Of a stretch of 64,000 bases of DNA, positions 4,333-42,125 are shown in pieces. Each line of letters begins with the position of its first letter. The first letter of the stretch is position 1. The stretch is from an uncultured Gemmatimonadales bacterium (GTDB lineage: Bacteria > Gemmatimonadota > Gemmatimonadetes > Gemmatimonadales > GWC2-71-9), in the NCBI GenBank assembly GCA_963828735.1, contig CAWHFW010000002.1, forward strand, positions 672,001 through 736,000. Reading direction: 5' to 3'. Under the pieces are notes generated by a model, which searched no databases, was not told where the DNA came from, and saw only the letters and a list, made by a program, of their open reading frames with translations. Position numbers and translations under genes: made by a program.

Positions 4333-4710
4333 TCATACGATGCGCCAGGGCGGACAGCGACGGTTCCGGCCCGCCCAATACAGGCACAGAGAGTTGCCTC
4401 CAGGATCCCGGAGCCGGGCCTCGCGCCAGAGCCATGGCTGATCGGCGGGCACACTGTCGAACTGGATTCCAGCCGAGCTGAGGCGCCGCACGATCTCGTC
4501 GAGGTCCTCGCACTCGAAGTAGACCACCGGGCTCGGCCCTGACCCGCGCTCGGAAACCTGTTCGAGCGACAGGGTGCTTTCCCCATCGGGGCATTCGAAG
4601 CGCGCATAGCGCGGGAGGTCCTCGACGATGAGGCGAAGTCCGAGGCGCTGATAGAATGCCACGGCGGGAGCCAGGTCTAGCACCGGGAGCGTCACTTGGT
4701 TGAGGTTCAT
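4333..4710 (-). CDS. VOC/glyoxalase family protein
   Basis: LNQVTLPV..AVAFYQ.LG and WREARLRDP.GN motifs. Confidence 0.9.
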   Translation of the reverse strand: MNLNQVTLPVLDLAPAVAFYQRLGLRLIVEDLPRYARFECPDGESTLSLEQVSERGSGPSPVVYFECEDLDEIVRRLSSAGIQFDSVPADQPWLWREARLRDPGGNSLCLYWAGRNRRCPPWRIV

Positions 4711-32668: not shown

Positions 32669-33271
32669 ATGCTCGACATCCAAATCATCGATGATCCGGC
32701 GGCGGCCACGGTGGCCTTGGAGCCGATGCGAAGCCGACTCCTCTCCGAGCTGGCCGCGCCCGCCTCGGCGGCGACGTTGGCCACGCGAGTCGGCTTGGCC
32801 CGGCAGAAGGTCAACTACCACCTGCATGCGCTGGAGGCGCACGGGCTGGTGCGGCTGGCCGAGGAACGCAAGTGGGGCGGGCTGACGGAACGGCTGCTCG
32901 TTGCGACGGCCGCTTCCTACGTCGTTTCGCCGGGCGCCTTGGGCCCGGTCGCCGTCGACCCGAATCGGGAAGTCGACCGGCTGTCCGCGAGTTATCTCAT
33001 CGCCCTGGGCGCTCGGGTCGTCCGCGAAGTGGGCGACCTCGTTCGTCGCGCGAAAGAGGCGGGCAAACGCCTGGCGACGCTGGCGGTGGATACCGAGGTT
33101 CGCTTCCGGTCGGCGGCGGACCGGGCGGCTTTCAGCAAGGAGCTCACCGAAGCCATCGCGACACTCGTTTCGAAATATCACGATGCATCCGCCCCCGGTG
33201 GCCGCGCGCATCGCCTGGTCGTCATTGCGCACCCCCTACCCCAGAAATCCCAGCCCAAGGAGTTGTCATGA
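32669..33271 (+). CDS. ArsR-like winged-helix regulator
   Basis: L.P.R..LL..L..PASA..LA..VGL.RQKVNYHL. Confidence 0.9.
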   Translation: MLDIQIIDDPAAATVALEPMRSRLLSELAAPASAATLATRVGLARQKVNYHLHALEAHGLVRLAEERKWGGLTERLLVATAASYVVSPGALGPVAVDPNREVDRLSASYLIALGARVVREVGDLVRRAKEAGKRLATLAVDTEVRFRSAADRAAFSKELTEAIATLVSKYHDASAPGGRAHRLVVIAHPLPQKSQPKELS

Positions 33272-34095
33272 GCGCGAAGCAAGAAGCCTCCGGACGCCGT
33301 TCCGTTCAGGTCGAATTCGAGGTCCCCGGCACGCCGGAGGAAGTCTGGCAGGCCATCGCCACCGGGCCGGGGATTTCGTCCTGGTTCGTGCCGGCTGAGG
33401 TAGCGGAGCGCGGTGGGAAGCCCGTCGCAATGAAGTTGAACTTCGGCCCGGGCATGGAAGCCCGTTCTGCCCTGACGGCCTGGGATCCGCCGCGGAGGTT
33501 CGTCGCGCAGGGCGAGGGGTGGGCTGGCTCGCCGCCCATCGCAACCGAGTGGACCGTCGAAGCGCGCGGAGGAGGCATCTGCATCGTCCGCGTTGTCCAT
33601 AGCCTTTTCGCCAGCACGGACGATTGGGACAACCAGCTGGAGGGCGCCCAGTCCGGATTGTCGGGTTTCTTGAGCACCCTGCGGGTCTATCTCACGCACT
33701 TCCGCGGACAACGATCCGCGATCATGCAGATCATGGCTCCCGTCGCGGGTTCGGACGCGGAGGCCTGGGAGGCCTTAACCACGGCATTGGGGGTGAAAGG
33801 CTTGAGCGTCGGGCAGCGTTGGACGGCGCCGGCAGGTGTCCCCGCGTTCGGAGGCGTGGCGGAGCACGTCACCCAGAGTCCGTACGACGCCCTGCTGCGG
33901 CTCGACAAGCCCGGGCCGGGCATAGCCGCCCTTGGCGCGTTCACCTTCCCCGACGGCCGGACCATGGTTGCGATGAACTTCTACCTGTACGGCGATCAGG
34001 CGACCGAACGGGTTGCCCGCGAGACGCCGCTGTGGCAGGCGTGGATGCAAGAGCGCTTTCCGATGCCGACGGAGCAGAGTGGGGCAGTCACATGA
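33268..34095 (+). CDS. SRPBCC domain protein
   Basis: PGTPEEVWQAIATGPGISSWF; ATGA overlap. Confidence 0.88.
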   Translation: MSAKQEASGRRSVQVEFEVPGTPEEVWQAIATGPGISSWFVPAEVAERGGKPVAMKLNFGPGMEARSALTAWDPPRRFVAQGEGWAGSPPIATEWTVEARGGGICIVRVVHSLFASTDDWDNQLEGAQSGLSGFLSTLRVYLTHFRGQRSAIMQIMAPVAGSDAEAWEALTTALGVKGLSVGQRWTAPAGVPAFGGVAEHVTQSPYDALLRLDKPGPGIAALGAFTFPDGRTMVAMNFYLYGDQATERVARETPLWQAWMQERFPMPTEQSGAVT

Positions 34096-34673
34096 GACAG
34101 CTCAGGATCATCGAACACATCTCGCTGGACGGCGTGATCCAACACTCGCACGATGACGACGCTTTCCCCTACAGCGACTGGACCGCGCCCTATCGGACCC
34201 CCGCCGGCCGAGACGCAGTGATGGCCGCGCATGGCGAGCGTTTTGATCTGCTCCTTGGCCGTCGCACCTACGATATCTGGTCGGGATTCTGGCCAAAGGC
34301 GCCGAGCACTCCGATCGGGGACAGGCTCAATGCGGCAACGAAGTTTGTCGCTACGCACCGTCCGGAAAGCCTTGCATGGGGTCCGTTCGAGGGCTTTGGA
34401 CCGGACATCGTCGAGGGCGTTCGCCGCATCCAGTCGCAAGACGGCCCGAACCTCGTCATCTCGGGCAGCTCGACGCTGACATCGACAATGCTCGAGCACG
34501 GGCTCGCGGATGACGTCGTGCTGATCGTCTCTCCGGTGCTGCTGGGCACCGGGAAACGCTTCTTTGCAGAGGGAACCCCGGCACGTGCATTCGAGCTCGT
34601 CAGCACGCAAACAACGCCGACTGGCGTCATCCTCAGCACGTACAAGGTCGCCGGGCCTTTGAAGGCCGCGTAG
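34092..34673 (+). CDS. Dihydrofolate reductase/RibD C-terminal family protein
   Basis: ISLDGV, LLLGRRTY, GSS.L, PVLLG.GKR.F. Confidence 0.9.
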   Translation: MRQLRIIEHISLDGVIQHSHDDDAFPYSDWTAPYRTPAGRDAVMAAHGERFDLLLGRRTYDIWSGFWPKAPSTPIGDRLNAATKFVATHRPESLAWGPFEGFGPDIVEGVRRIQSQDGPNLVISGSSTLTSTMLEHGLADDVVLIVSPVLLGTGKRFFAEGTPARAFELVSTQTTPTGVILSTYKVAGPLKAA

Positions 34674-34736
34674 TTCGCCGACAGCGGCCACACGGCGCGA
34701 TCGATTCGCGTGTGTCCCTACATCCTGGAGTGCTGC

Positions 34737-35537
34737 ATGCACGTTCGTTCGATCCGTCTTCAGACCTTCGCCCTGCCGTCGCTCGCTGCACTCGCGCAAT
34801 CATCCCCGGTCATCGCCCTGGGCTGTGGTGTGTCGAGTGCAGCGGCACAGACGGATACGTACCCGAGGATGGCGGCGATCAGTGAATATCAGATGGAAGA
34901 AAGCGCCGAGATTCAATTGGCGCGAAGCGCCGCCCCAAACTCCATATCCGGCGACGCGACGATCCTGGTTCTGGGACGTCAGGGATACGAGACAGCCGTT
35001 GAGGGCAAGAACGGGTTTGTCTGCATCGTGGCAAGAAGTTGGATGGCCGCGTTCGACTGGCCCGAATTCTGGAACCCGCGAGTGAGAGCCGCCGACTGTA
35101 TGAACCCCCAGTCCGCACGTTCGATATTACCGATCGCTTTGTTGCGCAGCAGGATGGTGATGGCCGGTCGTTCCAAGGCGGAGATCCTATCGGCGGTCAA
35201 AGCGGCGTTCGAGAACAGGCAAGTGCCGAGGTTCGAGAGTGGCGCGATGGATTACATGATGTCGAAATCGGCCTATCTGACCGACGAGGGCGACCACAAC
35301 GCGCCTCATCTGATGTTCCTCACTACCGGCGTCGACGCCAAGGACTGGGGCTCTGGCGCGGCGGGCTCGCCGCTCATGTCGGCCCCCTATTGGTTCTTCT
35401 CGTCGAAGGAACCATCGCGAATGAAAGGGCTGCCACCGATTCTTGTGTTCCTAGTCGGGGTGGCGACTTGGTCCGACGGAACGCCTGTGGGCAAGGATGT
35501 GACTGATGAAGGCGCCGTGCGGTCGCCGGGCCTTTGA
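34737..35537 (+). CDS. Secreted hypothetical protein
   Basis: EI.LARSAAP, G.NGFVC, YMMSK, PHLMF; GGAG RBS. Confidence 0.8.
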   Translation: MHVRSIRLQTFALPSLAALAQSSPVIALGCGVSSAAAQTDTYPRMAAISEYQMEESAEIQLARSAAPNSISGDATILVLGRQGYETAVEGKNGFVCIVARSWMAAFDWPEFWNPRVRAADCMNPQSARSILPIALLRSRMVMAGRSKAEILSAVKAAFENRQVPRFESGAMDYMMSKSAYLTDEGDHNAPHLMFLTTGVDAKDWGSGAAGSPLMSAPYWFFSSKEPSRMKGLPPILVFLVGVATWSDGTPVGKDVTDEGAVRSPGL

Positions 35538-35580
35538 AGTCCGGATAGTTCGACACCTTTGAATCCCGCCATCCTGGAGT

Positions 35581-35600
35581 GCTGCATGTGCGGGTTAGGC
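35581..35600 (-). repeat. attC remnant (R''/L'' end)
   Basis: GCTGCATGTGCGGGTTAGGC. Confidence 0.65.
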
Positions 35601-35654
35601 AACTCGCCCTCGGGACCACCGCAGGCCTGGGACGCCTCGATCTTTTGGGGAGTT

Positions 35655-35795
35655 GCCTTACGGATGCCGCATCAGCTTCAAGCGATTAGGCTTAACATCC
35701 ACACCATTGGACGTTCCGTACCTCATCACCGGAGTTCGGCGCCCGCCTGGCGCCTCACGCGGGACGCGCTTGTCGCCTGCATGCGGGGGTCAGGC
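35655..35795 (-). repeat. Degenerate full-length attC
   Basis: GCCTTACGGATGCCGCATCAGC...CTGCATGCGGGGGTCAGGC, 141 bp. Confidence 0.7.
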
Positions 35796-35866
35796 CGCGG
35801 CCAAGCGCGATGCCCACACCAGCGGCGCCAGGAACTGCCGTCGAGCGAATGGTGTTAGAATGACAT

Positions 35867-36085
35867 ATGCCTAACATGACGAAACCCGACCCGCGCCCGC
35901 TGTTCACCCCCAGCACCGTCCCGCAACCCGGTGCGCCCGATCCCGTAGTCGCATTTATCGAAGACGCTCTGCTCGCCATCGCCAACCGCCAGGATGAAGC
36001 GGAGATCCGCGAGCTCCGCGAGGATGAGGCGGTGATCCGTGAGCTCCGCCAGGATGAGGCGGAGATCCCGGAGCCGTCGGCCTAA
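35867..36085 (+). CDS. Small acidic protein with 10-aa tandem repeats
   Basis: R(Q/E)DEA(E/V)IREL about 2.7 times; TGTTAGAAT extended -10 just upstream. Confidence 0.5.
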   Translation: MPNMTKPDPRPLFTPSTVPQPGAPDPVVAFIEDALLAIANRQDEAEIRELREDEAVIRELRQDEAEIPEPSA

Positions 36086-36144
36086 CGGGTTGCAATAAGC
36101 TGCAGGACCTCAAGCCCGCGCCCGCACCACTGAACGATTCCACT
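36080..36144 (-). repeat. attC half site
   Basis: GCCTAACGGGTTGCAATAAGCTGCAGG...GAACGATTCCACT, other half absent. Confidence 0.7.
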
Positions 36145-36179
36145 CCCTGACTACTAGGAGATCCGAACCAGGAGGCCGT

Positions 36180-36431
36180 ATGGCAAAGGGTCGCGACCAC
36201 CTCAGCGAACCCCACTGCTTTTGAGCGCACCAGCAAGCGGCGCAAGGGGTTCTTGTCGGAGACGCGCGTGAAGCGGGGAACCCGCGTGGTGCACGGCGAC
36301 AAAGAGCTCCTCGAGAAGCTCGGTCGAAACGACCTGTGCCCATGCGGCTCCCGGCGGCGGTTTCAAGCGCTGCTGCCTCGGCAGCGGTAAGTACGACGGG
36401 GTTCTTCGGGACTACTACTTTTAGGGACTGA
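36180..36431 (+). CDS. SEC-C zinc-binding motif protein split across frames (putative programmed +1 frameshifts)
   Basis: AGGAGG RBS + [18 protein letters not shown] in one frame, KRCC in the next; absent from the ORF track. Confidence 0.75.
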
Positions 36432-36441
36432 TCGACCAATG

Positions 36442-36479
36442 GAGAGCGGACTCAGCACACGGGTTCGCTCTTTCCTTTT
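36442..36479 (+). terminator. Rho-independent terminator after SEC-C gene
   Basis: GAGAGCGGAC/GTTCGCTCTT stem followed by TCCTTTT. Confidence 0.7.
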
Positions 36480-36488
36480 GAGCCGTTC

Positions 36489-36566
36489 GCCTAACGACTT
36501 GCGCATCAGCTGCAGGCCTTCGAGCCCGCGCCCGCCCTGCCTGGCGGCGGCATGCGCGGGTTAGGC
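36489..36566 (-). repeat. Short attC (central region deleted)
   Basis: GCCTAACGACTTGCGCATCAGCTGCAGG...GCATGCGCGGGTTAGGC, 78 bp. Confidence 0.8.
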
Positions 36567-36587
36567 GGCTGCCGGATCCACCCGCAC

Positions 36588-37007
36588 TTAGTCCCAGGGG
36601 TAGAAGCAATCGTAATTGCGTATAGCCACGATCTTGCCGTTGCGAAGCTCGAAGACCTGCGCGAATCGGGTGCGCAGCTGGGTGCCCGCCCTGAACGGCC
36701 CCGCATCGCGAGCGACTCGACCGCGCCACTCGGCCTCCACCACCACCTTGCTACCACCCGCCATGAGGCCCAACAACTCGAACTCCTGCTCAGCCATCAG
36801 TGCTTGGCCTCGTTGAGCGGCCTCCTGCATGCCCCGGAGGTCGCGACGAGTGCCAGTCGGGAGGAGACGGTTGGGGAATTCCTCTTGGACGACGTCGGGC
36901 GCGAACCACTTCTCCCAGTCAACTGTGGCGGGACCGTGAGCGATGGCAGCGTAGTAGCTGCGGATCACGGCGAGATTCCCAGCTTCTTCAGAGGCAGCAG
37001 CCCTCAC
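36588..37007 (-). CDS. SnoaL/NTF2-like protein
   Basis: FAPDVVQEEFPN.L.P.G, R.GKI...RNYDCF. Confidence 0.85.
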   Translation of the reverse strand: MRAAASEEAGNLAVIRSYYAAIAHGPATVDWEKWFAPDVVQEEFPNRLLPTGTRRDLRGMQEAAQRGQALMAEQEFELLGLMAGGSKVVVEAEWRGRVARDAGPFRAGTQLRTRFAQVFELRNGKIVAIRNYDCFYPWD

Positions 37008-37026
37008 CGGAGTTCCTTTGGCAGAC

Positions 37027-37168
37027 GCCTAACGGATTGCAAATCAGCTGCAGGCGACGATCTCACCGCCCGCACAAATGAACGCCTCCACTGCTCGGCC
37101 TCGAGGAGAGCCGCGCCCATTTGGAACTCCGGCCACCCCGGCCTGTCGGCTGCATTTGCGGGTTAGGC
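37027..37168 (-). repeat. attC site (intact)
   Basis: GCCTAACGGATTGCAAATCAGCTGCAGG...CCTGTCGGCTGCATTTGCGGGTTAGGC. Confidence 0.92.
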
Positions 37169-37186
37169 TGCAGCGGGCCGTGCGGC

Positions 37187-37438
37187 TCATGGGTGTGGCG
37201 CTTGGTCCGGGTGCTTCGCCCAGTAGAGTACGTCCTGATACTTGTGCTGGGCCGCGGCGAGGAAGTAGCCCAGACGGCCGAGATTGCCGCCACTCAGGGC
37301 GAGCATCGCACGCCGTACATGCTCGACATCACGCTCATGTGGCGACATGCCATACTGCGACAGCATCACGTGCGCTTGGCGCCGGTCGGCCGGGGCGAAG
37401 CGCTCGGCGAGTTCGTGTTCGAGAGCTGCTGAGAGCAT
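37187..37438 (-). CDS. Small hypothetical cassette protein
   Basis: V..A.L.LS.G....L.......A...Y.DVLYWA; bounded by attC sequences. Confidence 0.7.
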   Translation of the reverse strand: MLSAALEHELAERFAPADRRQAHVMLSQYGMSPHERDVEHVRRAMLALSGGNLGRLGYFLAAAQHKYQDVLYWAKHPDQAPHP

Positions 37439-37459
37439 GTGTGTCAAAGTACGCTTCGA

Positions 37460-37523
37460 GGGACGGGGCGCCCGAGCGGAGCTCGGGACCACCTCCGGCC
37501 GTCGCTGCATGCGCGGGTTAGGC
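37460..37523 (-). repeat. attC half site
   Basis: ...GGCCGTCGCTGCATGCGCGGGTTAGGC. Confidence 0.7.
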
Positions 37524-37549
37524 CCCATTCACACCGGGAAGTCCGCTCG

Positions 37550-38008
37550 TTACCCGAGACGGGTGTACGTGAGCTGGAGGTCTGGCTCCCAGCGGTCACC
37601 ACGATTCAACTCGCCCTGCCCCACCATGCGCTTGCCCCCATCGACAAGTCTACCGGTAAATCGTTGAGAGAAGCCAGGAGTGTCACGCCACCACTGCCAC
37701 TGGTCGCTGCGCAGCGCAACGGCGTAGCGCAGCGAAACCCCCCGCTCGTCGAAATACAACATGGAACATTCCTTGGCATCGTCGTCGGTGCCGAAGATCC
37801 CGATGCCACTTGGAATGTCTGGTTCGTCGATCTCCGAGCGCATGACGAGGAAAGCCCCGCCGTCGGACCACGGGAAGCTGGTGCGACCATGAAGAGTTTT
37901 GCCCGGCAACATGGGGTGCGAGCCTTCAGTGCGCCATTCGCCGACAAGGAAGTCAAGAGGCTTCAGGGCCGGGTTTGGAATGGCAGCTTCGTAGCCGATA
38001 ATAGCCAT
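37550..38008 (-). CDS. DUF1579-like protein
   Basis: L..LVGEW, YFDERGV, SQRF.G, DL.LTYTR. Confidence 0.78.
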   Translation of the reverse strand: MAIIGYEAAIPNPALKPLDFLVGEWRTEGSHPMLPGKTLHGRTSFPWSDGGAFLVMRSEIDEPDIPSGIGIFGTDDDAKECSMLYFDERGVSLRYAVALRSDQWQWWRDTPGFSQRFTGRLVDGGKRMVGQGELNRGDRWEPDLQLTYTRLG

Positions 38009-38066
38009 GCGACACAGTACCGAAGATGAGGGGAGTGTGGCCGGATGCGGATCCGGGGTGAATGCG

Positions 38067-38210
38067 GCCCAACGGATTGCAAATCAGCTGCAGGCGATCA
38101 GCCTCGCGCCCGCACCAATCAACGCTTCCACTGTTTGGCCTCGAGGAGCGCCGGCGCCCGGGCGGAGCGCGGGCCCGCTCCGGCCTGTCGGCTGCATTTG
38201 CGGGTTAGGC
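38067..38210 (-). repeat. attC site (intact)
   Basis: GCCCAACGGATTGCAAATCAGCTGCAGG...GCTGCATTTGCGGGTTAGGC. Confidence 0.92.
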
Positions 38211-38244
38211 GGCGCAATCGCACGCGGCGAGCTCCGACGCGCGT

Positions 38245-39756
38245 TCAATGTGCTTTGGCATACGCCTGGGCTCCGCGCAGCAGGTGGTCAAGATCCTTCC
38301 GCGTCAGGAGGTGTCCGTTCACGACGACCGCCCGAATGCGGGAGGCGTTGTGGACGTCCGTGAGCGGATTCGCGTCGAGTAGCACGAGATCGGCGAGCTG
38401 GCCAACGGCGATGCTACCCAGCGAGTCGGTCGCCTGGAGGAACCGGGTCGGAGCCGTGGTGGCTGCGGCTACGGCGGATCGCGGTGACAGCCCCGCCTCG
38501 ACGAGGGCGGAGATCTCCTCGTGTAGGCTGAACCCGGGGTAGACGTGGGGATCGAGCACGTCTGAGCCTGCCAGCAGCGGCACCCCGGCGCGCCCCATCG
38601 CCGCGACGATACGAAGGGAGCCGCCATACAGTTCCTGGAGGCTCGCGAAGTCTTCGCTCGACATGTCCTTGAGGCGGTCGTCGTTGCGGGGGTCCCATTC
38701 CCACCGGAGCTTGGTCGTGGCGTAGCGCAGATAGGGATCGCGGCTGGCGTCGTATTCCTTCACCCAAGCGATGCTGCGCAGCGTAACCAGAGTCGGCACC
38801 TGCCAGGTGTCGTTCTGCACGAGCCGCGCGAAGTACGGCTGGCAGGCTGCCTCGTCGAATGTGCTGACGCCGAGGTGGTTGATGGCGCGCGTCAGCATCG
38901 CGCGGTGCGTCGCGGAGGTGTCGCGCGCCCGCGTGGCGCGGAGCGAGAGGACAGAATCGGGCTGGCTGGTGCACTCCCGGCTGGCGCCCTGCAGGTGCTC
39001 GATGCTGCGTTGCCCCGAGTCCGAGACATCGCGCGGGCTCACACCGGCCGGCACGTGCCCCGCAACCGGCAGCCCGTTCGCGCGCGCGGCCCGGAGGAGC
39101 GCGAAGTAGGCCTCTGGCAGAATGTCGCCGATGACCTTGATGAAGTCGGCACCCTGCTCCTTGGCGTGCCGGACCGCAGCTATGGCGTCGGCGCTGTCCC
39201 GAACGGCATGGGTCCCTGGAAAGGGCGGCGGCTTGGCCCCCCTGAGAGCGTTCCCCGCCACGACGAGGCGCGGACCCAATAGCGTGCCGGCGGCAATGTC
39301 GTGCTTCCATGTCCGCACCACCGATGCGGGCGGGGCCACACCGGCCGAGTCGGTCCCGGCACAGATGCTCTCGCAATCACCCCACATGTCGCGGAGGCCA
39401 GTGACACCGTTGGCGAGGTACAGCGGGAACATCAGCGAGCGGGTCGTAGAATCGTCGGGCAGGTGCGCGTGCATGTCCCAGAGGCCGGGGAGGAGGAACT
39501 TGCCATTAGCAGCGACCACACGGCTGCCCGCTGGGACGTCGAGGGTCGCCGACGGGCCGAGGCCGACAATGCGACTGCCCCTGATGACGACACTCTGATC
39601 CACCAGCGATGGACTGTCGGACATGGTTAGGACAGTCACGTGTGTGAACACGACCGGAGGGACGGCCTGTTGAGCCAAAAGGCCGGTCGCAGGTGCAACG
39701 CTTGCAACACACAGAACAGCGTTCGCCGTAATGTTCCAGGATCGCATTCGCATCAT
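38245..39756 (-). CDS. Secreted amidohydrolase family protein
   Basis: PGLWDMHAH, GADFIK, SIEH, LAGSD, G..ADLVLL.ANP. Confidence 0.9.
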   Translation of the reverse strand: MMRMRSWNITANAVLCVASVAPATGLLAQQAVPPVVFTHVTVLTMSDSPSLVDQSVVIRGSRIVGLGPSATLDVPAGSRVVAANGKFLLPGLWDMHAHLPDDSTTRSLMFPLYLANGVTGLRDMWGDCESICAGTDSAGVAPPASVVRTWKHDIAAGTLLGPRLVVAGNALRGAKPPPFPGTHAVRDSADAIAAVRHAKEQGADFIKVIGDILPEAYFALLRAARANGLPVAGHVPAGVSPRDVSDSGQRSIEHLQGASRECTSQPDSVLSLRATRARDTSATHRAMLTRAINHLGVSTFDEAACQPYFARLVQNDTWQVPTLVTLRSIAWVKEYDASRDPYLRYATTKLRWEWDPRNDDRLKDMSSEDFASLQELYGGSLRIVAAMGRAGVPLLAGSDVLDPHVYPGFSLHEEISALVEAGLSPRSAVAAATTAPTRFLQATDSLGSIAVGQLADLVLLDANPLTDVHNASRIRAVVVNGHLLTRKDLDHLLRGAQAYAKAH

Positions 39757-39773
39757 CACTCCGGAGGGGGTCC

Positions 39774-39915
39774 GCCTAACGGATTGCAAATCAGCTGCAG
39801 GCGATCATCTTACCGCCCGCACAAGTCAACGCTTCCTCTGCTCGGCCACAGGTGCGCTGCGCCCGCGAGGAGCGCCGGCCCGCCCCAGCCTGTCGGCTGC
39901 ATTTGCGGGTTAGGC
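39774..39915 (-). repeat. attC site (intact)
   Basis: Same consensus; contains TAA of the upstream cassette gene. Confidence 0.92.
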
Positions 39916-40497
39916 GGCGCCGTCGATAATCTTTAGTGCTTCTCGGTTCTCGAGCCTCAGCCAATAGATCGTTTGGGTGACTGCTCCAACGATATCGTAA
40001 AACTCTGACTGAAATGGGATAGCCATGTACTCGTGTTCCATCCAGCGCGAGTACTCTTCAGTCTTGTCGCGATGCGTATGAGCCAAGCCGCCATAGAGAA
40101 AGACGTCAAGAATTCGGCGGCGACTCACCGGTTGCTTCTGCCAGACAATCGGGCTTTCCCGGTCCAGGTAGGTGTTCATCTTGTTTCGAATCCCCGAGAC
40201 GCGGTCGGTTAACGAGGCTAGTTCGGGCGCATCGGCGTAGAGCGCCGCGAGGCGGCGAATCGAAATTGGCTCGTTGTCTTGGATGAAGAGTCGAAACGTC
40301 AGAACAAAGGCATCCACCTCATCCACGGTAGCAAGATCGCCAGTAACCTGCATGGGTTTGCCGACGCGGCCCTCGAACTTGTACGAACCCTTGCCGGCTC
40401 TCAGGGCAGCTAGGAACTGCAGCCCATTAAGTTTTTCGGCCTTCTCGTTGAAGAGCCGGAGGGTCCGGCGGACATCGCTTAGGTCGCTATCAGACAT
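39910..40497 (-). CDS. Hypothetical helical protein, atypical (lower-GC) codon usage
   Basis: Fills the space exactly between two intact attC sites. Confidence 0.8.
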   Translation of the reverse strand: MSDSDLSDVRRTLRLFNEKAEKLNGLQFLAALRAGKGSYKFEGRVGKPMQVTGDLATVDEVDAFVLTFRLFIQDNEPISIRRLAALYADAPELASLTDRVSGIRNKMNTYLDRESPIVWQKQPVSRRRILDVFLYGGLAHTHRDKTEEYSRWMEHEYMAIPFQSEFYDIVGAVTQTIYWLRLENREALKIIDGAA

Positions 40498-40509
40498 GGT
40501 CGTGCGTCC

Positions 40510-40652
40510 GCCTAACGGATTGCAAATCAACTGCAGGCGATCACCTTCACGCCCACACTAATCAACGCTTCCACTGCTGGGCCTACCGGAGGGCCGCGCC
40601 CGCACAGAGCTCCGGCCCGCCCCGGCCTGTCGGCTGCATGCGCGGGTTAGGC
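40510..40652 (-). repeat. attC site (intact)
   Basis: GCCTAACGGATTGCAAATCAACTGCAGG...GCTGCATGCGCGGGTTAGGC. Confidence 0.92.
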
Positions 40653-40680
40653 AGCAGCCCGGGCGAGTCCACCCATCGCC

Positions 40681-41358
40681 TCACCAAAGGCCCGGCACGA
40701 GCCGGGAGCGAACGCGCCCCGCATACTCCGTATACGCCGGCAGCGCTTGGACCAGTACCCGCTCCTCCAACACGAGGCGCAGGGCGAGCAAGCCGATCGG
40801 AATGAGCGCTACCCCGAGACCGATCGGCGAGCGGAGCCAGATGGGAACCCCCAGCAGCGCCGCCACTAGGCCGGCATACATCGGGTGGCGCACCACACCG
40901 TAGACGCCCGCGTCCACCACGGTGTGTCTGCGCTCCGGTTGATGACGCACGACGGTCGTGGCATAGGCGTTCGTTTCGAGCGCGCGCATGACGAGCATCC
41001 ATCCCACAGCGAAGAAGGCGAGCCCGAACCAGGCGAGCATCGGTGATAGGGCCGTCGCCCAGCGCCAGCGTTGCCGGTCCAGTCCCGTCAGCACCAATTC
41101 ACCTGCGTAGGAAGCCATGAAGGCCAGGAGGAGGATCTTGTCCGACAGCGGCTGGCCGGGCTGCCACGGTCCCTTGGCCCGCTCGGGCAGCAGGCCTGGG
41201 TTGGCTCGAACAATCCGGACGGTGCCAATCATGTGGATCACGAGGTAAAGGCCAACGAGTACCCAGGCGCGCCCCCAACTCCAGGCGCCCGTAGGGCCGA
41301 GGAGGGCGGCACCGAAGAGAAGCGTGGCGAACAAGGTGTTCAAGAGCGCTCGGAACAT
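40681..41358 (-). CDS. ICMT family methyltransferase, second copy
   Basis: VVDAGVY.VVRHPMY, EE..L...LP.Y..Y...VR.RL.P. Confidence 0.88.
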   Translation of the reverse strand: MFRALLNTLFATLLFGAALLGPTGAWSWGRAWVLVGLYLVIHMIGTVRIVRANPGLLPERAKGPWQPGQPLSDKILLLAFMASYAGELVLTGLDRQRWRWATALSPMLAWFGLAFFAVGWMLVMRALETNAYATTVVRHQPERRHTVVDAGVYGVVRHPMYAGLVAALLGVPIWLRSPIGLGVALIPIGLLALRLVLEERVLVQALPAYTEYAGRVRSRLVPGLW

Positions 41359-41405
41359 GGTGTTCAGCGGCTTTCCGTGTGCAAGTCGGGGTGCTGGTTG
41401 CTGCT

Positions 41406-41534
41406 GCCTAACGACATGCTAATCAGCTGCAAACGACCTTAGATAACCTACGGTCCGTTGTTGTCGCTGGGAGGGGCGGATGCGGGCGGAGTGCGGCTCC
41501 GCCCGCGTTTGTCGGCTGCATTAGCGGGTTAGGC
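41406..41534 (-). repeat. attC site (divergent subtype)
   Basis: GCCTAACGACATGCTAATCAGCTGC...GCTGCATTAGCGGGTTAGGC, 129 bp; compensatory CTAAT/ATTAG change. Confidence 0.9.
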
Positions 41535-41963
41535 CGCGCGGCGCTCCCAGGCACGCACGCGACCGCGCACCATGCGGAATAGTGGGTGAGCGGCCGGATG
41601 GCGAGTCGTCACCAGCTGTTGGTAACGCTCCGGGGCCCGTTGCCGGAGTTTACTCAACAAGTGCACCCATTCGGCGGCCAATTGTCCTGTAGTTTCCGTA
41701 ATCCGCAGGCCCGAGCGGGCACGCCCGAGCTTTTTCGGGTCGAAAGCGTACCCGCGACGGCAAGCCTCCACGTACACGGCCGCCAGGTACTGGTTCAGAG
41801 ACTCCACCGGACGGGCCTGCTCCCGGAATCGCGTCAGTTGGGGGTGGTGCCGGTAACCCCGGGTGCCGCCGCGGAGCACGGCCCGGGCGAGCAGCGCCTC
41901 GCGCCAGAGAGCCACCAACCCGCGGGCGTCCAGGTATTTTGGGTGCACGGTCCAGAGCCGCAT
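41529..41963 (-). CDS. Pyrimidine dimer DNA glycosylase/endonuclease V family protein
   Basis: MRLWTVHPKYLD..GLVALWRE.LLA, Y.HHPQL.RF. Confidence 0.9.
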   Translation of the reverse strand: MRLWTVHPKYLDARGLVALWREALLARAVLRGGTRGYRHHPQLTRFREQARPVESLNQYLAAVYVEACRRGYAFDPKKLGRARSGLRITETTGQLAAEWVHLLSKLRQRAPERYQQLVTTRHPAAHPLFRMVRGRVRAWERRAA

Positions 41964-41982
41964 TCCTAGATCTCCGGCGTCG

Positions 41983-42125
41983 GCCTAACAGATTGCAAAT
42001 CAGCTGCAGGCGAGCATCTTCACGCCCGCACTATTCGACGCTTCCACTGTTTGGCTACGAGGAGCGTCGGGCCCGCACGGAACGCCGGCCCACCCCGGCC
42101 TGTCGGCTGCATTTGCGGGTTAGGC
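41983..42125 (-). repeat. attC site (intact, first of the array)
   Basis: GCCTAACAGATTGCAAATCAGCTGCAGG...GCTGCATTTGCGGGTTAGGC. Confidence 0.92.

Follow-up and report, generated by a model that had tools for sequence, protein, structure and literature searches.

A bacterial family of SEC-C mini-genes apparently decoded through serial +1 frameshifts at UUU-pyrimidine sites

A short gene of an uncultured Gemmatimonadales bacterium belongs to a real and conserved family that apparently represents a form of programmed +1 frameshifting not described before. The gene is located within a stretch of 64,000 nucleotides (hereafter the window) taken from contig G000:C2 of the host genome G000 (4.78 Mb, 7 contigs). 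When TTT followed by a pyrimidine (TTT-Y) is read as one four-base Phe step from the ATG at 36180, the gene gives a SEC-C protein of 82 residues ending at the TGA at 36429-31, and the decoding departs from the standard code at exactly three steps. The real decoding path is very probably a series of +1 ribosomal shifts at UUU-Y.

The gene is on the forward strand. A Shine-Dalgarno (SD) sequence, AGGAGG (36170..36175), precedes the start codon (36180; AGGAGG-ATG spans 36170-82), and a leader segment of 13 codons in frame 0 (36180..36218) runs up to the first junction, J1 (TGC-TTT-T(GA), 36219..36222), where the frame-0 reading stops at TTT-TGA (36219-24). The decoded frame then encodes a conserved basic core and the first half of the SEC-C motif (36223..36360), with its internal Phe encoded by TTC. 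The second junction, J2 (CGG-TTT-C(AA), 36361..36364; TTT-CAA, 36361-66), is located within the SEC-C motif and is followed by the second cysteine pair and a conserved [YF]DG..R.YY tail (36365..36418). At the third junction, J3 (TAC-TTT-T(AG), 36419..36422), the reading reaches YYF and TTT-TAG (36419-24), and a third +1 step leads to R-D-stop (36423..36431).

These elements, from the SD sequence to the R-D-stop, had been pointed out in a preliminary description of this DNA, and all of them are present in the sequence. The +1 frame was said to have no start of its own, and no ATG, GTG, or TTG occurs from the stop at 36148-50 to J1. The decoded product contains CPCGS...FKRCC, whose KRCC is supplied only by the second +1 shift at TTT-CAA, as had been proposed. 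The restriction of TTT to junctions in a TTC-rich genome should also be noted: all three TTT codons of the gene are junctions, the sole other Phe codon (KG-F) is TTC, and the long ORFs of G000 contain 27483 TTC and 2902 TTT codons. The terminator placed after the gene stands in part. Folding gives a terminator-like hairpin followed by a U-rich tract at 36440..36479 (-22.3 kcal/mol, z -2.2), whereas a strict terminator scan makes no call there. A structured-RNA search of positions 33000-42000 found no Rfam match at E<=1, and no sigma-70 site was detected in the window.

An over-called T in each run had been named as a possible artifact, and comparison with assembled contigs (not raw reads) from independent studies reveals zero indels. 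Contigs of three other studies cover one or more of the junctions, and a fourth dataset (X1) has no coverage of the gene. Contig X5 (36000-36412) covers J1 and J2 with 0 differences and contig X6 (36163-36448) covers J1 to J3 with 3 substitutions, both gap-free, while contig X10 covers J1 without a gap. Together with the homologues that share the junctions, these contigs rule out an assembly error.

Homologues were analyzed as the best 80 of at least 266 confirmed genome loci, the best 80 of 568 metagenome loci, and three viral loci. Removal of duplicate cores, nine loci without a called start, and two truncated loci left 155 scored loci. The TTT-Y rule restores the full protein in 123 of these (69/81 genome, 53/72 metagenome, and 1/2 viral loci), whereas the unshifted reading gives it in 0/155, and control rules on AAA, CCC, GGG, TTC, or CTT give 0/82 each. 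The proposal that the gene depends on recoding is thus borne out, with +1 junctions conserved at UUU-pyrimidine, and the uninterrupted homologues that would have spoken against it did not appear, none of the 155 being full-length in one frame. The rule fails in the remaining 32 loci, owing to TTT-C inside the gene, junctions at CTT-C, tails with TTT-TTC in frame, apparent decay, or strictness of the pattern. All retrieved database entries of the family are broken fragments: of 378 proteins, none reaches from the core as far as the R-[DE] end without a change of frame, and 6 extend from the core to DG. Databases annotate the middle frame.

The positions of the junctions were counted in 122 decoded paths, for which the start finder selects an SD sequence plus a start; an SD and start 9-25 codons ahead of the core in 122/122 paths is therefore imposed by the selection. 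The leader is unconserved in sequence, and its length is 11-12 codons in 82/122 paths. J1 is found in 116/122 paths and J3 in 105/122. J2 is found in 83/122 and an alternative site ten codons later (J2b, at GCF/DG) in 44/122, with either or both in 117/122; the site thus changes position within the gene and is nevertheless retained. No path has fewer than two junction types, and each gene has two to four sites. Homologues without a given junction carry the same residues there in frame, which confirms the decoded sequence. The R-[DE] tail, for example, shows synonymous variation and is in frame without a shift in L024, L047, L064, L071, and L084. In L054, L058, and L074, two four-base steps occur back to back (TTTT-TTTC). 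In three further copies (L169-L171, from G220, G208, and G138), an additional CTT-C junction splits the core (KEL-L/H-EK), and such copies are under-counted by contiguous-core searches; L171 has TTC-T at J1.

The frame transition is thus conserved at a conserved slippery sequence, as in programmed +1 frameshifting, and the new-frame product is also under purifying selection. Synonymous variation is free in the core, Ser AGC/TCN included. After J2, variation is concentrated at third positions of the decoded frame (third-position variation 0.49). Stops are absent from this frame in all 63 sequences but interrupt the other two frames in 21 and 51 of them. These patterns show selection at the protein level along the shifted path, also past J2 and J3.

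The codons 5' of the sites are biased toward C endings. Cys is encoded by TGC at 52/52 sites versus 370/500 (74%) elsewhere, Tyr by TAC at 75/80 versus 107/189 (57%), and Ser by C-ending codons at 38/43 versus 350/631 (55%); since the loci are related, the trials are not independent and p-values are overstated. Arg at J2 lacks the bias (38/104 versus 582/1350 elsewhere). The bias at Cys, Tyr, and Ser matches the influenza PA-X cassette UCC_UUU_CGU, in which UCC before UUU raises shifting according to the available text of PMC5009743. Outside the junctions, TTT-C is avoided within the gene: the KG-F codon is TTC-C in 94 loci and TTT-C in 8, whereas flanking ORFs use TTT at 372 of 925 Phe codons before C. 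In about 11 loci, CTT-C takes the place of a junction, at two different positions. Since CTT-Y is also read in frame 31 times, and since a TTT-C inside the gene has to be decoded without a shift in eight loci, the shifting is probabilistic rather than a change of the code.

The preliminary description further proposed that perturbed termination is a signal for the shift. The next old-frame codon is a stop at just 142/362 sites (11/83 at J2) and not a stop at 220/362, and a stop is therefore not required for the shift. The stop in the A-site that characterizes prfB-type sites is thus not a general property of the family. The earlier interpretation is partly supported: the recoding part holds, and the termination part fails. 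The zinc that it named for the motif is putative; SecA-type motifs are described as binding iron in vivo (bioRxiv 10.1101/613315).

The protein was assigned through an in-frame homologue. L041 gives a whole-motif match with four cysteine ligands to the SEC-C profile PF02810 (E 1.2e-7, 31.8 bits, cut-off 20.4), while the window core alone has no match at 1e-4; PF02810 is hence matched only when the two halves at J2 are joined. The NCBIfam YecA/YchJ/SecA families reach at best 32 bits against a cut-off of 140, and every NCBIfam score falls far short of its cut-off, so that the protein belongs to none of these families. Sequence matches to the SEC-C chains 9l6b, 1sx0, and 1ozb are found, and fold matches to the same chains are weak. 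The fold models have pLDDT values of 56.6 and 69.8, and their fold matches are to the SEC-C knuckle only (E 0.4-4); a wide fold search with model 1 gave no match, and the ESM Atlas gave only unnamed SEC-C clusters. In the AlphaFold model of an in-frame homologue, pLDDT is 72-87 over residues 31-67 and drops to 51-59 over the 30 basic residues at the N-terminus, for which no fold match was found. This basic arm, conserved and modeled with low confidence, is probably disordered. SecA-type metal-binding domains bind SecB and ribosomes, as the available text of bioRxiv 10.1101/613315 describes. A basic arm joined to a SEC-C knuckle would point to RNA or the ribosome as a partner. Given the low confidence of the arm and its lack of a fold match, ribosome binding is predicted by analogy.

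The family comprises about 850 sequence clusters (E<=1e-10), and its carriers fall in 14 named phyla. Isolates are among them, including Caulobacter vibrioides OR37, Rhizobium pisi, Novosphingobium fluoreni, and Chthoniobacter flavus. In Gemmatimonadota, the gene is rare (4/300 genomes apart from G000); among 100 relatives, three genomes of the same genus carry the gene with the same three junctions as the window gene. Two Manganitrophus plasmid records cover the core, whereas the matches in annotated phages are all short or weak and leave the basic core poorly covered. A tree of 69 cores (138 nt) has only two strong branches, and a single origin of J2b may be compatible with it. Literature searches, whose coverage excludes subscription papers, found no published description of the family.

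The neighbors of the gene were surveyed by Pfam on 468 of 1984 ORFs chosen by a heuristic (four antisense picks were replaced by hand) and by tblastn. RtcB, TROVE/Ro60, Hen1, Thg1, or RNA ligase genes lie within 3 kb of the gene in 17/83 genome loci and in 7/80 of the shorter metagenome loci, on the same strand as the SEC-C gene in 15 of the 17, and are accompanied by PrfH-like, AAA_33 kinase, Band-7, and PcfJ genes. Arrays of at least three tRNAs occur at the gene in 6/83 genome, 7/80 metagenome, and 2/3 viral loci, and the gene can be located inside them, for example between Arg and Cys tRNAs. These raw counts suggest that the gene is enriched beside genes for RNA repair and beside tRNA arrays. 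Roughly four of every five genome loci lack a repair neighbor within 3 kb. The repair genes do not clearly avoid TTT-Y (38/125 versus 44/107, p 0.10). The window locus is not linked to a repair gene or a tRNA array, and a tblastn search of G000 found no RtcB, TROVE, Hen1, Thg1, RNA ligase, or kinase. Genome-level co-occurrence with RtcB was not seen in the genus: RtcB is in 0/4 carriers versus 11/60 genus genomes searched (including the unpublished G047). The sensor role suggested in the preliminary description would thus draw circumstantial support from the neighbors in other genomes and none from G000.

Several other features of the loci were observed. In L043, L046, L062, L069, and L083, a conserved element TGCGGGCCG..GGGTTATC..CCCCACGTTCACCAACTTG(C/T)CCGCA lies just past the gene stop and again upstream; it precedes TROVE/Ro60, with related tRNA-like units upstream. 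No fitting Rfam family was found for the element, which may represent Y-like RNAs. The post-J2 frame of L069 (2981-5044) is open into the downstream TROVE gene, so that a skipped J3 would give a TROVE fusion; this is not so in L046. On the viral contig L085 (2446-10887), 21 tRNAs surround the gene; three of them are Phe, and the rest are Leu, Ser, or Tyr. In L130, a tRNA-like gene (4409-4484) with an 8-nt loop, whose anticodon ARAGORN gives as ctgt, is located 1.5 kb away from the SEC-C gene. The words enriched in 120 upstream regions are mostly tRNA loops, plus GTGAACC, which occurs about 70-140 nt before the core (11 versus 1.4 expected; L073, L075, L096, L103, L104, L108, L113, L117, L129, L130, L141, and L142) and is a possible promoter or operator word. 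A sigma-54-like motif is present in just 2/120 of the upstream regions.

The window gene itself is flanked by repeats. Outside the gene, the left half of a repeat, which we take to be attC-like from its RYYTAAC/GTTRRRY ends, lies at 36080..36110 with no matching right end before the gene, and a complete attC-like repeat follows at 36489..36566. Approximately nine such repeats (GCCTAAC..CTGCA / TGCA..GTTAGGC) flank small variable genes between 25361 and 42125, and this region looks like a cassette array. The annotation continues with SnoaL, a gene of the opposite strand, and neighbors vary among loci. A leader-peptide attenuator of the pheL or ermCL type was rejected for this locus, since no same-strand gene lies directly downstream and the peptide is strongly conserved.

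The reading that we favor, and to which we assign about an even chance, is a gate for translational stress, in which serial +1 slips make a SEC-C recovery factor predicted to bind ribosomes or tRNA. We infer the trigger, the function of the protein, and the making of the shifts by ribosomes. The P-site tRNA-Phe(GAA) would re-pair from UUU to UUC or UUU; UUU_Ynn is prone to +1 shifting in bacteria even without a stop, as stated in the available text of PMC5009743. The efficiency would be conditional, either on slow filling of the A-site when tRNAs are cut or scarce or on damage to ribosomes or their inhibition by drugs. The yield would be the product of the site efficiencies, and three sites at a few percent each would give a negligible amount. 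Sites in series would thereby sharpen the response, a useful product appearing only if slippage rises sharply. The product would help translation recover and, like release factor 2, might damp the slippage from which it arose.

The use of TTT-C in ordinary genes bears on the trigger. In 1415 long ORFs of G000, TTT makes up 22.5% of Phe codons before C versus 2.5-7.8% before other bases, and TTT-C is not avoided in ordinary genes. Global slippage would therefore be costly, and any state prone to shifting has to be short-lived or confined to this mRNA. A bolder reading, which we put forward tentatively, is that the gene acts as a coincidence detector for frame loss, constructed in such a way that it can be made only by ribosomes that slip again and again at UUU, its product being an unrecognized ribosome- or tRNA-binding rescue factor that acts with spare tRNAs and RNA ligases. 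If true, bacteria would have a physiological state in which most UUU-Y is decoded as a word of four bases.

It is possible, though unlikely, that the shifting is constitutive and that leaky serial C-UUU-Y sites simply hold the level of a protein that is potent or toxic very low, at a set ratio and without sensing. The intrinsic +1 tendency of UUU_Ynn, together with the very low level at which PA-X works without stimulators (available text of PMC5009743), is consistent with such a mechanism, as are the absence of a detected conserved promoter motif or 3' structure across loci and the genome-wide abundance of TTT-C. A strong SD sequence combined with two to four sites kept in 14 phyla would, however, be a costly way to lower expression, and the placement in stress-type tRNA and repair loci suggests conditional use. 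Because of these repair and spare-tRNA neighbors, the stress gate is favored over a set ratio.

Rather improbable, in our estimate, is a sensor of tRNA-Phe position 37 (the MiaA/MiaB ms2i6A modification, which is iron-sulfur dependent), in which hypomodified tRNA would slip under iron, sulfur, or oxidative stress and make an iron-binding SEC-C protein. The sites are almost all Phe, and G000 has miaA, miaB, and one normal tRNA-Phe, with A37. UUU-Y shifting reportedly rises on loss of miaA, a result attributed to Schwartz and Curran in 1997. SecA-type motifs bind iron in vivo, with iron preferred (available text of bioRxiv 10.1101/613315). Against this, Leu CTT-C junctions replace Phe at two positions, most tRNA-Phe genes in the arrays carry G37, and the neighbors are repair genes rather than iron or mia genes. 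Loss of the modification genes as the cause of shifting was rejected, miaA being in 3/4 carriers and miaB in 4/4; miaA was not found in G020 (93% complete).

We consider it more doubtful still that slippage is stimulated locally, by the nascent basic peptide or by the protein acting in trans on its own mRNA, as an autoregulation without global stress. Avoidance of TTT-C only inside the gene fits this proposal, and nascent-peptide stimulators of +1 shifting of up to 60% exist (available text of PMC3082878). The upstream anti-SD pairing is also somewhat stronger at J2 (-3.2 kcal/mol) than in the background (-1.8 +/- 2.4 kcal/mol, sd), with -0.7 at J1 and -1.8 at J3/J2b, a few J1 sites being counted as J2. 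On the other hand, J1 comes after just 9-16 unconserved codons in most paths, ahead of any conserved peptide.

Restoration of the frame at the RNA level, through transcriptional slippage or deletion of a U, or by a dedicated four-base tRNA is very improbable. At the DNA level, an RNA change is equivalent to a ribosomal shift, but the runs here are 3-4 T, and the slippage sites described in the available text of PMC3711429 are T runs longer than 8. No tRNA-Phe with an 8-nt anticodon loop was found, all Phe(GAA) tRNAs found having 7-nt loops, and a frameshift-suppressor tRNA-Phe is thus rejected among the tRNAs found. An internal start of the middle ORF, in line with the database annotation and with a Met at core position 4 in 16/83 loci, or a pseudogene or assembly error, is largely refuted already and hardly credible, given an out-of-frame leader with SD and start in 74/80 loci, the selection that persists after J2 and J3, and the gap-free independent contigs.

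Known bacterial regulatory +1 frameshifts are few and single-site, and this family keeps two to four moving sites. Slippery sites that move and are nevertheless retained point to a selected use of frame infidelity. The gene could serve as a natural reporter for bacterial frame loss at Phe codons and is a candidate new player in the response to tRNA damage; if the multi-site stress gate is true, the system would be categorically new.

Comparison with known systems delimits the family from several sides. The SecA C-terminal domain, YecA, and YchJ (PF02810) share the GRNDxCPCGSGxxFKxCC motif with the family, whose members differ in being stand-alone proteins of approximately 80 residues with their own basic N-terminal half, a DG..R.YFR[DE] tail, and a motif split by a frameshift. 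A minority of the gene copies sit inside tRNA L-array/RtcB/Ro60 stress modules, whereas most copies, including that of the window, stand alone. In Anabaena, translational stress induces tRNA L-arrays along with rtcB (available text of PMC8421152), and 'SEC-C' is absent from the main text of PMC8421152 and PMC10272220.

Among frameshift systems, prfB (CUU_UGA) resembles the family in its short zero-frame leader, in the location of the functional part in the new frame, and in P-site re-pairing onto UUU/UUC; the UUU-stop at J1 and J3 of the window gene is a further likeness. The prfB site has an internal SD sequence. In contrast to the family, with two to four sites that are nearly all Phe and mostly (220/362) without a stop, prfB has one stop-dependent site at Leu. 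Its frameshift is described as a sensor-effector in the available text of PMC5009743. Influenza PA-X (UCC_UUU_CGU) and the bacterial UUU_Ynn cases (argI and YopN-TyeA) have the same slippery core and a 5' codon ending in C, but theirs are single low-level sites that yield a minor extra product, whereas here the only conserved product needs all the sites. Multiple frameshifts per gene are shared with Euplotes and some mitochondria, in whose genomes frameshifting is widespread. Genes with 2, 10, and 12 frameshifts are described there in the available text of PMC5009743. Those systems are eukaryotic or organellar, whereas the gene described here is bacterial and the other genes of its genome use TTT-C in frame.
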